Source of the DNA: Giardia intestinalis
Lineage: Eukaryota
Length of the DNA: 64,000 nt
Strand: one strand, 5' to 3'
Assembly: GCA_000002435.2 (NCBI GenBank)
Contig: CM018793.1
The notes beneath the pieces were generated by a model. It made no database searches and was not told the origin of the DNA. It saw nothing but the letters and a program-made list of their open reading frames with translations. Below are positions 56,737 through 62,757 of the stretch, piece by piece; within the stretch, counting starts at the first letter, position 1, and each line of letters opens with the position of its first letter. Made by a program: the position numbers and the translations under genes.

Positions 56737-59700
56737 CTAGTTCAGAATGGGGACGGATTGTTCCAAAATAACGCCTACGAGGACTAGGCATGATATACCG
56801 GCAGACAAAAAGACACTATTCCAGAACTCAGAGGTCTCCTCTGAAATCGTAAACCCTGAGATTAAGAGGCTAAGGATTGGAAATCGGATAGGGAGAAGAA
56901 GAACAGCGTAGATGACTAAGAACTGAATGGCGAAGAAGACCCCTACGTGAAGAACCCTGAAGCACCGATGCATGGAACCTTCCATGCCTCTCACGATCGG
57001 AAGCCGTATAGCAATGAAAAAGGCTGCAATTGAAAAGCTCATAAAGAGGAGAACCATAAGCAGAGTTGCGAATATTACAAACTTACGCGAGAGCGAGGAC
57101 ACAAAAAGGTTGTTCCTGTCAAGATACATAGGCTTAAAGAACTCAGTAGTGCCGTAATACCGATAGTTGATAGACGGGAGGAGCGCTATGGCACTGATAA
57201 CGATAAAGATGAGGCTGAAGCTAGTAAGCGACGACGTCCGAAGGTTCTTGGACAGCTTTTCCGCCACATTCATCAAAGCTTTAAGGTGGTACCTACTGGG
57301 GGGTTGCTTTGTATAGGCAGTCACAGACGGAAGGCTGTGGGCATTGTGTCGGCCCTTCATTCGTATGACTGCTCTGTGGATATGATTAATCATCTGCTTG
57401 ACTAAGGGATCATGCTGTGAAAGGGATCTAGACCGCAGTTTGCCCTCTATCTGTGTAGGTCTCCTGTGGAACCTGAGCGAGAACTGAAGTACCTTAGGAA
57501 TCATGAAATCGTTGACAAGGGCATTTGTGAGCAGAATGATTCCTACAGTGGTCGGCGGGTAGTACCAAGGGCGCAGTCCCATGTTTATCATCTCATACCT
57601 ATAAAGTATACACTCCAGCGTGATATTGGTGGTAATAGTCAGGGCCAGCGTCAAGGGAAAGATTCCTTGCAGCAGGCTTGAGCGGACAGTACCAATGAAT
57701 GCAGGAAACATTGACAGGAAGAAATATGGGGCCTCTAACGCCACATCACGTAAGTGCTGGAGACCGTGGTGGCCAAACGTATATGCCACAGAAATACGCT
57801 CTCTTAGCAAGCGGCGGAGTTGAACATAACTTTCCTTGGGAATACCTAGCTGCTGCTTCCCACGATTCGGCTCATAGCCTGGGCTATAGCCAATTATAAG
57901 AAAGTCTGGTTTCCGAGAAAACGAGATGTTACTGCGACAGACGGAAAGGTAGCTTGGAACCGTCTTAGAATCTCCTGCCGTTTGTAGCAGGGTAGCTGCA
58001 GTCGTGTTGTCCTTGAAGACATCTTCTTCTTCGATGGTATAAGCATACGAGGAGGGCCTAGATGGGAGGACCAGGGTCACGAACGCTCCTGCATTACTGA
58101 GTGCAGACGCAACATCTACAGAGTTACTCTCGGGTATTACAAATACATTCGGCAGATGCTCACCGAGTAGCTCTCCCTCTCGAATGGGAGCCCTGTAATG
58201 GGTTCTTTTAGGAGGATTGTAAAATCGTTGAGCTGTTGCCATAAAGTGCTCAACGGCCTTCCAAGTCTGTTGCGGTGCAATAATAGGGTATCCAAGCGTA
58301 CAATCTATGCTGGAGATTGTAGCATCTTGCCTACGGGGTCTTAGACTATGCACTTGAGTCTCATCTGAAACAAAAGATTCATCAGAAATATTCAGCTCAC
58401 TAGACGTAGCCTTAAGCTGTGCATATATTTGTCTGTTCTGCGCCAGCTGAGCAGATCTGTGATGGTACTTAGCATGCTGGGTGCGACGTGCATGAAATAC
58501 CCTTGTATCTTGTTGGGTAGAATTCTGCTCCTCTTCTGCATCTGATAGAACAAGTGGATAGCGAGACACACAGTCAAAATGCTCATCTGCTGTTACAGCC
58601 CTCCAATCATCCAACATATCGGCTCGCTTCCGCTGTAGGTGAACATATGACTTATTGTGTCTTCTGTTGGGCCTCGATGACAATAGTAGTTTTCCGTTGT
58701 TGTCGTGGATTCTGCTGAGGGTATACAAGCTAACTGCCTTCAGATCAGTTGTAACAAAGCAACGCCTTGTTTGAGCGGTCAAGGGGGGAACGACAATTGG
58801 CTGCTTTTGGTTAGAACCTTTAGGCTTCTTCGGTCTAAGCTCTACAGTGGGCAAACTAATATCATGACAGGGTTTGTCTGCCTCAGCATTCGACGTGTTC
58901 CAATCAGAGTCTCTTACTTCTCCAAGATTATTTCTGCCATGGCTGGCATTCGTCTGTACGGTTAGATTCAGTGCACTAAGAAGTGTCTGTACGTCAGTCA
59001 GAGGATTTGCACACATCTCCTTAGGCCTGCAAAGCCCAAAAGCTGCATGCTGCTGACCAGCATTTGAAGACCGCCGTGTCGTTATTATCAAGTTTGCCCC
59101 ATTGGACAGGTCTGTGAAACGGGAAATGAATGCAGTAGGAGCATGTTTCTGGGTAGCGTGAAAACCCATTGCGCCAATATAGATGAGATCCAGAGCAGGG
59201 ATTGTCTCTCTCGAAAGATCGGATAAATCCATATTCGCGACATGCAAGGCTGACATAGCATATAGCACAAGCTCGTGACACGTTGCTCCTAATTTATTGA
59301 TTTGCTGAGTGGCTAGTTGACGCCTAGCGTCATCCATTCTTCTGTAGTAGAAGAGAATGTGGTCACTGTCCGCTGCTAGTGTAAAAAAGTGATGGTCGCC
59401 TGCAATCGTTGAGCCCAGGTCATCTGCTATTGTGTATTTGCACACTGAAATAAGGTCCTCCGGACTGGATGACTTCACCACAATAACTGGAGCCTGTCTC
59501 TCTATATACACAAGATAGACGCACAGAGGATAAGTTACAAGCGGATGTATTTGTGCAACACTAAGATGAGAGTCCTGGAGACACCCTGGAGTAATGAGGC
59601 GCCCATACTTCCGTACAGTAGCTGAGTATCGTGAGGTTCGTATGCTCCTCAAGGTCCGCGCTTGATTCATGGTCAGGTATTTGCACAGGTATTCCTCAAA

Positions 59701-62700: not shown

Positions 62701-62757
62701 ATCCCATAGCTTGCTTAGGACCTGGGAGCTCTGTAGCCCCGTGTTGGGATCGACCAT
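56737..62757 (-). CDS. large multi-pass membrane protein with a P-type-ATPase-like core and a degenerate phosphorylation motif (2006 aa)
   Basis: Actuator-like LVVGDVLVLAEGQIVPCDCTIL (compare LVPGDIV.L..GD.IPCD). Hydrophobic helices at both ends. LGALEAIGFTNALVIDESLLVN aligns with the P-type AVETLG...ICSDKTGTLT.N, but KTGT is replaced by ESLL. A long insert follows the actuator segment. Confidence 0.55.
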   Translation of the reverse strand: MVDPNTGLQSSQVLSKLWDREQSNEQLKSVLRLISVTDCPLGKLTENPRTTPSTAKQKLRQRHIKAVLGEFILHNEVFHIVLGLFLSMLGLIFELSSSGSSMNMFNFIALTIYLPIFLGSNVMSTRVASSAPTSKQNSGGRFFRVCPLKDLMLQSKDQAVPMTGSKEAFLPATAVDRTAGPLISEDTLPVPDASRSQHKSSRTAEDSTSLTLEAAPIYTQVLDFQAWKPMRLQKHIASLVDMEADLRRFVLKSFSSFLAKIRNIAFPNYLVIRDGEFMVIEACNLVVGDVLVLAEGQIVPCDCTILPTYFTQAHSLSMHLPEYQMCYPAFPVDVSNKLRPFCPEAVSYGLARKQPLVYCTFPTSTAANIIAHYKIYSLYSTLCKSRAKSVRHVQKAKRIYSAGIGSTLHTASLPHQDTSEELTSSRLYRSRRERADSSNPLLESNFSGRGQSMHANSIVDDALSFYVNKLGLQDSVQSSLLLCGQKILQIKNPLPITLENVSISTIVSAFFARVHANCQTETTEFSAEKFARLSSLCMKVLIDELGARKTSSSSVSIAVTRGIRVCVTALGKDTSVFQRSERLLSDLQQSLDFPARPNHSLRRSLRRSKLPKPNVSSPATLIEGKEALTETISMPASFLSSTLSMQNFFRVISIISLWVSVFLIIIPVLPRLALSSELRRQYVSYWDPAQSDQLALFAIGFIPSVCAALTFGLVSGLFLHRNTVALRPIISVSSKHLSSLVQRNVHIHTLGALEAIGFTNALVIDESLLVNISGSQVHEDAPGFWGPVAMNLSFIYVAGENTTHRLYLDEEIRLQGSILAQDIVTPLWPSIFRYLVQVNAVTGQYVIIGARRRFHGSYALQHSAGVVESTEQIDHSHQFSFYEGQHADITFAQTPKVPKQSRRLYDTLLCLMRFLACVTMGPADVAHALKNSTTEQTIFTPDYAFEIVAFDSESTSSRSPSRECSFHEQKDPLYATTNRRTRTSTSSEASLAKPSPTFVELSLSRPIRPDVITSSYFSGFEEYLCKYLTMNQARTLRSIRTSRYSATVRKYGRLITPGCLQDSHLSVAQIHPLVTYPLCVYLVYIERQAPVIVVKSSSPEDLISVCKYTIADDLGSTIAGDHHFFTLAADSDHILFYYRRMDDARRQLATQQINKLGATCHELVLYAMSALHVANMDLSDLSRETIPALDLIYIGAMGFHATQKHAPTAFISRFTDLSNGANLIITTRRSSNAGQQHAAFGLCRPKEMCANPLTDVQTLLSALNLTVQTNASHGRNNLGEVRDSDWNTSNAEADKPCHDISLPTVELRPKKPKGSNQKQPIVVPPLTAQTRRCFVTTDLKAVSLYTLSRIHDNNGKLLLSSRPNRRHNKSYVHLQRKRADMLDDWRAVTADEHFDCVSRYPLVLSDAEEEQNSTQQDTRVFHARRTQHAKYHHRSAQLAQNRQIYAQLKATSSELNISDESFVSDETQVHSLRPRRQDATISSIDCTLGYPIIAPQQTWKAVEHFMATAQRFYNPPKRTHYRAPIREGELLGEHLPNVFVIPESNSVDVASALSNAGAFVTLVLPSRPSSYAYTIEEEDVFKDNTTAATLLQTAGDSKTVPSYLSVCRSNISFSRKPDFLIIGYSPGYEPNRGKQQLGIPKESYVQLRRLLRERISVAYTFGHHGLQHLRDVALEAPYFFLSMFPAFIGTVRSSLLQGIFPLTLALTITTNITLECILYRYEMINMGLRPWYYPPTTVGIILLTNALVNDFMIPKVLQFSLRFHRRPTQIEGKLRSRSLSQHDPLVKQMINHIHRAVIRMKGRHNAHSLPSVTAYTKQPPSRYHLKALMNVAEKLSKNLRTSSLTSFSLIFIVISAIALLPSINYRYYGTTEFFKPMYLDRNNLFVSSLSRKFVIFATLLMVLLFMSFSIAAFFIAIRLPIVRGMEGSMHRCFRVLHVGVFFAIQFLVIYAVLLLPIRFPILSLLISGFTISEETSEFWNSVFLSAGISCLVLVGVILEQSVPILN

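Follow-up and report, generated by a model that had tools for sequence, protein, structure and literature searches.

A giant membrane protein of Giardia intestinalis is probably a pseudo-enzyme descended from a P-type cation pump

The window analyzed here, a stretch of 64,000 nucleotides (nt) of Giardia intestinalis DNA (contig CM018793.1 of NCBI GenBank assembly GCA_000002435.2), carries at positions 56737-62757 the gene GL50803_0017202 of G. intestinalis WB, a single open reading frame (ORF) of 2006 amino acids (aa) plus stop. By exact-sequence look-up, this ORF corresponds to XP_037902317.1 and to UniProt D3KHB5, and it is labelled, depending on the record, "hypothetical protein", "P-type ATPase A domain-containing protein" or "Cation transporting ATPase". 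Few enzymes are conserved as uniformly as the P-type ATPases, whose DKTGT motif serves to define the family. An earlier reading of the DNA letters by a model, hereafter the original prediction, had proposed at this place a giant P-type-ATPase-like membrane protein with a degenerate DKTGT loop, which would be either a catalytically dead scaffold derived from a pump or an extremely divergent P5-like ATPase. The ORF was found where it had been announced, on the minus strand, which had been left unstated. The protein was also, as predicted, about twice as long as an ordinary pump (2006 aa vs ~800-1000 aa in 85 genuine pumps), the extra length corresponding to ~1000 residues of insertions, which are moderately Ser-, Thr- and Arg-rich and evolve faster than the pump-like blocks. 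As detailed below, GL50803_0017202 very probably encodes a pseudo-enzyme whose ancestor was a P-type cation pump of the P2/P3-like kind.

The sole Pfam match of the protein was to PF00122 (E1-E2_ATPase) at aa 268-306, scoring 28.6 bits when the full-length protein was scanned and 33.2 bits when the segment was taken alone (cut-off 28.1), and it covered just the profile positions 6 to 44 of 181. The actuator-like beta-strand motif recognized beforehand, LVVGDVLVLAEGQIVPCDCTIL (aa 285-306), lies within this match and is thus confirmed by a profile above its cut-off. Segment-wise Pfam scans returned no Hydrolase, Cation_ATPase, Cation_ATPase_N or Cation_ATPase_C match, and six class-specific models of NCBIfam matched weakly, on the same actuator stretch. 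A single-sequence search of the PDB gave a best match with an E-value (E) of 0.0085. Detection by single-sequence methods was confined to the initial 40-70 actuator-domain residues.

With a profile of five family members as the query, the PDB search retrieved Na,K-ATPase alpha with an E of 1.9e-9, and HMMER added a second collinear stretch in which D765 falls on the phosphorylated Asp of the pumps. For the comparison of profiles with hhalign, a template made of SERCA only (Neff ~1.8) was too narrow, only the actuator block being significant, and it was replaced by a profile of 85 genuine pumps, including vertebrate SERCA1, a choanoflagellate Na,K-type pump and 80 diverse prokaryotic P2-type pumps from genome contigs. 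Against these 85 pumps, aa 1088-1229 aligned to SERCA 507-626 (score 93.9, probability 96.2%, E 2.6e-9), and the whole-protein run also aligned aa 737-797 to SERCA 323-368 (score 45.0, E 0.001) and aa 255-306 to SERCA 113-166 (score 44.2). When isolated, the latter block reached a probability of 97.9% and an E of 4.5e-13. The nulls consisted of 20 queries with columns shuffled inside 40-column windows, which gave top scores of 17-26, and of a reversed query, which gave 19.7. Weaker collinear anchors were observed at aa 2-21, at aa 563-578 (score 22-23, E 0.009-0.07; nulls 13-15) and at aa 645-668, where TM3 weakly matched SERCA 253-276 (score 18.8 vs 10.1 for the null). HMMER profiles of the N-to-P block, aa 620-1819 and the C-terminal region found no pump in the PDB, indicating that the homology of these parts is visible only when profile is compared with profile. 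Taken together, the alignments lend good support to descent from a P-type pump for the A domain, for the second half of the N domain and, as far as the TGD hinge, for the P domain.

Table 1. Features of the GL50803_0017202 protein, with amino-acid positions and the corresponding window positions
Feature	Residues (aa)	Window position (nt)	Strand	Basis
N-terminal GLs..e motif VDPNTGLQSSQVLSKLWDRE	2-21	62695..62754	(-)	hhalign to SERCA 18-37, score 27.2, E 0.0027; reversed null 11.1
Putative TM1-TM2	77-125	62383..62529	(-)	hydropathy peaks
Insertion of ~140 residues, ahead of actuator block
First actuator block, ends in VVGDVLVLAEGQIVPCDCTIL	255-306	61840..61995	(-)	Pfam and hhalign, SERCA 113-166
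Insertion of ~200 residues, within actuator domain
Tentative equivalent of the S-x-L-T-G-E-S loop, SLLLCGQKILQIK	479-491	61285..61323	(-)	inferred
Actuator-domain end IRVCVTALGKDTSVFQ	563-578	61024..61071	(-)	aligned to SERCA 219-234 ALGIVATTGVSTEIGK
Putative TM3-TM4	645-720	60598..60825	(-)	hydropathy
Degenerate phosphorylation loop	737-772	60442..60549	(-)	SERCA 323-359; isolated block E 0.0023
Insertion of ~170 residues, N domain
C-terminal half of N domain to P-domain hinge	1088-1229	59071..59496	(-)	hhalign, SERCA 507-626
Insertion of ~400 residues, beyond TGD hinge
Conserved block LPNIFVIPxSxS...ALS..G.FVTLV ... RKPDFLVVG	1533-1625	57883..58161	(-)	invariant columns
Putative TM5-TM10, six predicted helices	1676-2005	56743..57732	(-)	hydropathy and low-confidence AlphaFold2 model (pLDDT 42.5)

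From its N-terminus onwards, the protein appears to follow the domain order of a pump: a first piece of the actuator and a pair of helices precede the actuator domain proper, a second pair leads to the phosphorylation loop, and the N domain, the P hinge and six predicted helices come after it (Table 1). In the N-terminal motif, P4 and G7 are invariant in the family; Pfam PF00690 gave no match to the N-terminus. Hydropathy analysis predicted transmembrane (TM) helices at aa 77-95, 104-122, 651-669, 696-714, 1842-1860, 1899-1917, 1939-1957 and 1980-1998, and two more, at about aa 1676-1718 and 1734-1763, come from the low-confidence AlphaFold2 model only. The layout is therefore 2+2+(4 to 6) by hydropathy and 2+2+6 once the two helices of the model are added. 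The helices predicted earlier at both ends of the protein are borne out, with others lying in its middle. The TM1-2 region had no significant sequence match to TM1-2 of the pumps. TM4, in its putative register, reads GFIPSVCAAL in the window protein, with an invariant Pro and without the ion-binding Glu of the pump motif PEGLP. In the block at aa 1088-1229, VK-SSSPE stands for VKGAPE, DLIYIGAMGF for DLTFVGVVGM and IITT-R-R (nt 59071-59079) for IMITGD. The block at aa 1533-1625, which occupies the place where the rest of the P domain with its GDGxND hinge would be expected, gave no significant match to pump segments; it is 78% identical between assemblages, with a ratio of non-synonymous to synonymous substitution rates (dN/dS) of 0.078. 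Further downstream, aa 1892-1956 matched SERCA 896-954 weakly and collinearly with an E of 0.09, a match equal to the null when the search was restricted. A TM6 equivalent picked by eye at aa 1741-1758 scored at or below the null and stands as an unproven suggestion.

Catalytic and ATP-binding positions were then compared in rabbit SERCA1a numbering (canine P0031 is one lower after ~residue 505), all of them invariant in 85/85 pumps, except E309 (84/85). Residues of the family are listed in the order window protein, P0002, G. muris, P0154 and P0153, the four latter being relatives described below. D765-E-S-L-L (nt 60451-60465) stands for D-K-T-G-T: the phosphorylated D351 is D, D, D, D and S, K352 is E throughout, T353 corresponds to a one-residue gap, G354 is S, S, A, S and D, and T355 is L, L, T, V and M. 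The aligned motif of the window protein is thus D-E-(gap)-S-L, as opposed to a complete DKTGT in each of the 85 pumps. Elsewhere, D601 of DPPR is A, A, V, D and S, G626 is R, R, S, T and K, D627 is R, R, R, K and R, the ATP-binding R560 is V, V, F, Y and I, and E309 of TM4 is S, A, A, C and A. Several structural positions are kept, namely N330, L336, E340, G343 and T625 (5/5) as well as the TM4 Pro, the first four being N744, L750, E754 and G757 in the window protein; the Lys of KGAPE, K515, is kept as K, K, K, R and R, and the Gly of this motif is lost. For the region around Phe487, no alignment to the pumps was obtained. A scaffold preserved while the chemistry has gone is what typically marks a pseudo-enzyme. 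The original prediction had aligned VIDESLL, in the segment NVHIHTLGALEAIGFTNALVIDESLLVN (aa 744-771), with CSDKTGT of the pumps, and both HMMER and hhalign indeed place D765 on the phosphorylated Asp, with a score of 45.0 against a null maximum of 26. Its statement that the Asp is kept and KTGT replaced holds for G. intestinalis, G. muris and P0154 and fails for two other relatives, with a Ser at this position in P0153 and a Glu in the fragment P0155.

A string search of the whole protein found no DKTG, TGES, TGD or GDG. The reported lack of TGES is upheld, and an intact DKTGT/TGES set elsewhere in the protein, which would have spoken against a degenerate pump, was likewise not found. No acidic residue of aa 307-620 is invariant in the family, which therefore lacks an equivalent of the TGES glutamate. 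The best candidate for the corresponding position reads C-G-Q-K in the window protein and (C/S/A)-G-Y-x in its relatives. In a restricted search, the loop SLLLCGQKILQIK came out as the second-best match with a score of 8.9, which is at noise level; its residues S479, L481 and G484 are invariant in the family. Two other candidates chosen for TGES were less satisfactory: LLESNFSGRGQS (aa 441-452), the first one picked by eye, was rejected as unconserved in G. muris, and SYGLARKQP (aa 347-355) is conserved, yet was never aligned by hhalign. For SERCA 627-760, which includes GDGxNDxP and the Lys684 region, no segment of the protein aligned above noise. A GDGxND candidate picked by eye, IPESNSVDVASALS, has no conserved Asp in the family, and the GDGxND equivalent proposed by eye at aa 1541-1563 scored at or below the null and is likewise an unproven suggestion.

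When 1.84 billion representative proteins were searched exhaustively with HMMER, few relatives were recovered. These are P0002, a G. intestinalis orthologue, probably of assemblage B (66% identical, scaffold L001); P0152, which is GMRT_13284 of Giardia muris (1723 aa); P0154, a full-length protein of 2117 aa from an uncultured organism (SRA run SRR31929897, L082 6001-12354); P0153, also uncultured and full-length (2941 aa, JGI metagenome 3300010163, L083 298-9123), which is Ala-, Gly-, Arg- and Pro-rich and is the member with Ser in place of the phosphorylated Asp; and some fragments, including P0155. The same search found no relative in any other named organism; a second, word-indexed search returned vertebrate SERCA1 only, and a third one with the family profile gave nothing new. 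As far as the searched databases show, the family would be restricted to the Giardia lineage. The comparison of orthologues suggested in the original prediction revealed intact ORFs of 1723-2941 aa in G. muris and the two uncultured relatives, ORFs that remain uninterrupted over 5-9 kb in all lineages found, and a motif loss that is family-wide. At the codon level, the comparison with P0002 gave an overall dN/dS of 0.117, with synonymous sites being saturated. By region, dN/dS was 0.06-0.08 in the pump-like blocks and 0.2-0.33 in the insertions, and the membrane blocks had values of 0.066 (TM3-4 and P-loop), 0.070 (putative TM5-6) and 0.085 (putative TM7-10). Judged by these ratios, GL50803_0017202 is under purifying selection and is not a decaying gene.

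Four motifs which have no counterpart in the pumps were also noticed to be invariant, or almost so, in all five relatives: PEAxSYGLAxxQPEV (aa 343-357, ~61687-61731), LITPxCLQ...LSVxQxHPL (aa 1054-1073, ~59539-59598), RKPDFLVVG (aa 1615-1623, ~57889-57915) and RPWYYPP (aa 1729-1735, ~57553-57573). They may mark a new function of the family.

GL50803_0017202 thus appears as an enzyme-family homologue with lost catalytic residues, purifying selection and intact orthologues in at least 4 lineages, which are the features by which a pseudo-enzyme is operationally recognized. The proposal of a catalytically dead, pump-derived protein in the original prediction agrees with these data: the homology of the A, P and N domains is robust, and nearly every catalytic position that could be aligned is replaced across the family, the phosphorylated Asp itself being kept in 4/5 members. 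The residues required for productive ATP binding, for formation of the aspartyl-phosphate and for its hydrolysis have been lost. Since the chemistry of P-type ATPases and of the HAD fold is well established, this loss implies that the protein would have no E1-E2 (Post-Albers) cycle and no ATP-driven pumping. The aspartyl-phosphate would be neither formed nor hydrolysed, we infer, and ATP is probably not bound productively. Because selection preserves the gene, a non-catalytic role as a structural or regulatory membrane protein is most likely, and the ~1000 residues of fast-evolving insertions in the actuator, N and P domains would then provide surfaces for interactions or regulation. A reciprocal change of charge may close the former active site, with the Lys of DKTGT turned into Glu and the Asp of TGD into Arg or Lys in 5/5 members, and this Glu/Arg-Lys pair could form a salt bridge locking the headpiece. 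A more far-reaching version, in which these giant stand-alone pseudo-pumps have rebuilt the pocket by charge swap and latched the headpiece so as to work as an ATP-independent receptor, an organelle tether or a gated conduit, with the insertions as working surface, can be imagined and is rather doubtful.

Several points weigh against a catalytically dead pump. The Asp is kept in 4/5 full-length members, beside an invariant Glu, and the conservation of this acidic pair could hint at a residual acid-dependent function. Beyond aa ~1240, hhalign gave no match to pumps above the null, so that the GDGxND hinge, Lys684 and TM5-10 have no assigned equivalents and a relocated catalytic residue is conceivable. 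AlphaFold2 modelling of aa 620-1819 from a 4-sequence alignment had a mean predicted local distance difference test score (pLDDT) of 30.6, and that of aa 1640-2006 from 5 sequences had a pLDDT of 42.5, with an uninformative best E of 0.76 by Foldseek against the PDB; the P-domain and N-domain folds are consequently deduced from sequence profiles. The role as scaffold or regulator and the charge-swap latch are themselves proposals, and no source for contact between Lys352 and Asp627 in genuine pumps turned up in the accessible literature. Another search of the literature, on the gene identifiers of GL50803_0017202, found no paper mentioning the gene.

An alternative is that the membrane domain survives as a passive channel, a carrier or an ion sensor, with the dead headpiece acting as a gate or regulator. 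The membrane blocks are indeed among the most constrained regions of the protein (dN/dS 0.066-0.085), the helix-breaking Pro of TM4 is invariant, as is R1692 within the putative TM5, and in the putative TM6, aligned by eye, an acidic residue followed by a Pro is present in all members (NDFMIP / VEYVFP / LEVILP / VEVLLP). The TM4 Glu of PEGLP is lost in 5/5, however, and the alignments of TM5-6 and TM7-10 to the pumps are at or below the null, which leaves no ion-site residue assignable, and we know of no natural precedent for a passive channel derived from a pump. Passive transport is an unlikely reading, although it fares best among the alternatives.

A much smaller chance, which we consider very slight, is given to an active, extremely divergent pump that would phosphorylate Asp765 via a non-canonical site. 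Such a site would account for an Asp765 kept in G. intestinalis A and B, G. muris and P0154, within a loop that is the most conserved segment of the protein, and for the retention of the Thr of TGD and of the Lys/Arg of KGAPE. This possibility has to face the change of the Asp itself into Ser or Glu in P0153 and P0155, and the replacement of eight other positions invariant in 85/85 pumps, two of them with charge reversal (K352 to E, D627 to R/K). Moreover, TGES is absent and the actuator region has no conserved acidic residue, and every member has a hydrophobic or aromatic residue in place of the ATP-binding Arg560. As is well established for P-type chemistry, SERCA or Na,K-ATPase no longer turns over once any single one of such positions is mutated.

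The assignment to a pump class bears on the other half of the original prediction, a divergent P5 member of the ATP13A2/Spf1 kind, which is hardly tenable. Its only support is the match of TIGR01657 (P5, P-ATPase-V) to aa 270-306, found in 1/5 members, the window protein; with 15.2 bits, it lies ~600 bits below its cut-off of 618, and only one of the six class models scored lower. Of the profiles listed as a check in the original prediction, E1-E2_ATPase was thus the one above cut-off, Hydrolase having no match. The P3A and generic models matched 4/5 members and P2C 3/5, with scores of 15-28 bits vs cut-offs of 500-950; the best class-model score was 28.4 bits for TIGR01647 (cut-off 615.5), and no P2/P3 cut-off of NCBIfam was reached. 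Among solved structures, the top matches of the family profile were Na,K-, H,K- and PfATP4-type pumps, followed by P3A, bacterial P2A, P4 and P1B, with P2D also present, and no P5 pump appeared among the best 60 of 80 PDB matches, where P2C pumps are found as well. The TM4 signature of P5 pumps is PP(E/D/A/V)xP, and TM4 of the family is G-(F/L/A)-(I/V)-P-(S/A/C)-(V/L)-(C/M/T)-A, with a single Pro and not PPxxP. Just two hydrophobic segments precede the actuator domain, and the N-terminal GLs..e motif, of the Cation_ATPase_N type, is of the P2/P3 kind, which weakly supports this side given that PF00690 did not match. The "PCD" that had been taken for a P5 signature does not help either: the Cys of "VPCD" sits where 85/85 P2-type pumps have Ala, and no evidence was found that a Cys marks P5. 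The weak affinities of the family therefore go to P2/P3 pumps and none to P5. It fits no defined class, and on thin evidence "derived from P2/P3-like pump" would be its best description.

A decaying pseudogene or a chance or compositional similarity to pumps can practically be dismissed: the ~40 residues that barely reach the Pfam threshold, the long low-complexity inserts and the inability of AlphaFold to fold the protein would fit it, against which stand an ORF that is free of interruptions over its 6 kb, and likewise in four other lineages, a dN/dS of 0.12 with saturated synonymous sites, and three collinear profile-profile matches far above all 21 null runs.

The putative pseudo-pump was compared with known systems. 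To our knowledge, naturally dead relatives of P-type ATPases are rare, those known being the cyclase-fused flippase modules and possibly the disputed TMEM94. The P2/P3 pumps (Na,K-ATPase alpha, H,K-ATPase, PfATP4-type, SERCA and plasma-membrane H+-ATPase) resemble the Giardia protein in domain order and in collinear blocks, which include GLs..e, the actuator beta-strands, the ...ETLG...D loop, KGAPE...hinge...T(GD) and, as a prediction, the 2+2+6 hydrophobic layout. Unlike these pumps, the Giardia protein is twice as long, has nearly every alignable catalytic and ATP-binding residue replaced, and shows no detectable sequence similarity over its C-terminal 770 residues. Human TMEM94/ERMA, of the endoplasmic reticulum, has ten helices, A/P/N-like cytoplasmic domains, an Asp at the proposed site and no TGES, and its ATPase activity was not found in one study (PMC12134183); a 2026 paper argues that it is a real Mg2+ ATPase (PMC13322241), and its activity is thus disputed. 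TMEM94 is comparable to the Giardia protein in being stand-alone, in its pump-like architecture, in keeping the Asp, as most Giardia members do, and in lacking TGES. It was not matched in the PDB by the profiles A3 (best 60 of 80), A4, A6 and A7, and motif loss goes further in the Giardia family, one member of which lacks even the Asp. In the P4GC modules of Cryptosporidium, gregarines and Tetrahymena and in GC-beta of Plasmodium, changes or losses affect both DKTGT and the actuator Glu, yet the module is retained and apparently functionally required (PMC13466520). These provide a case of a degenerate, pump-derived module kept in parasitic protists; they are derived from P4 ATPases (flippases), however, and their output activity comes from the cyclase to which they are fused, whereas the Giardia protein is stand-alone and P2/P3-like and has no other recognizable catalytic domain. 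Going by its sequences, the Giardia family is more thoroughly degenerate than the P4GC and TMEM94 precedents.

The genomic surroundings were also inspected. GL50803_0017202 is separated from the flanking ORFs of the same strand (55738-56718 and 62776-63420) by just 18 nt on each side (56719-56736 and 62758-62775), which implies that its promoter and its polyadenylation signal must be extremely short unless they are located within the adjacent genes. On the opposite strand, within the gene, there is an ORF of 161 aa (59851-60336, plus strand), which is probably a chance ORF. The downstream neighbour (55738-56718, minus strand) encodes a Cys-rich protein of 326 aa with many CxxC pairs and the look of a zinc finger; Pfam gave no significant match for it, and the gene call for its counterpart on L001 has 265 aa. 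Genes for a katanin-p60-like AAA ATPase and a RabGAP-TBC protein are found nearby in both G. intestinalis genomes (window 51427-54525; L001 16227-19316), indicating that local gene order is conserved. None of these neighbours, the small unannotated ORFs included, provided a clue to the function of GL50803_0017202. Elsewhere in the window, positions 10001-14000 have 55-56% G+C vs 45-52% for the rest, with long overlapping ORFs on opposite strands (11487-12851, minus; 11634-12893, plus), and three other very large ORFs are 20789-29545 (minus, 2918 aa), 12897-18440 (minus, 1847 aa) and 30836-34789 (plus, 1317 aa).

If this interpretation is true, GL50803_0017202 would be a stand-alone pseudo-enzyme derived from a cation pump and conserved in G. 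intestinalis, in G. muris and further afield, offering a natural experiment on the scaffold of a pump without its chemistry. The label "Cation transporting ATPase" would then be functionally misleading, as the sequence cannot support this activity, and the protein should be excluded from inventories of Giardia transporters. The family profile can be used for finding the same protein in other metamonads. Giardia being a human pathogen, this protein would be one without a close counterpart in the host.

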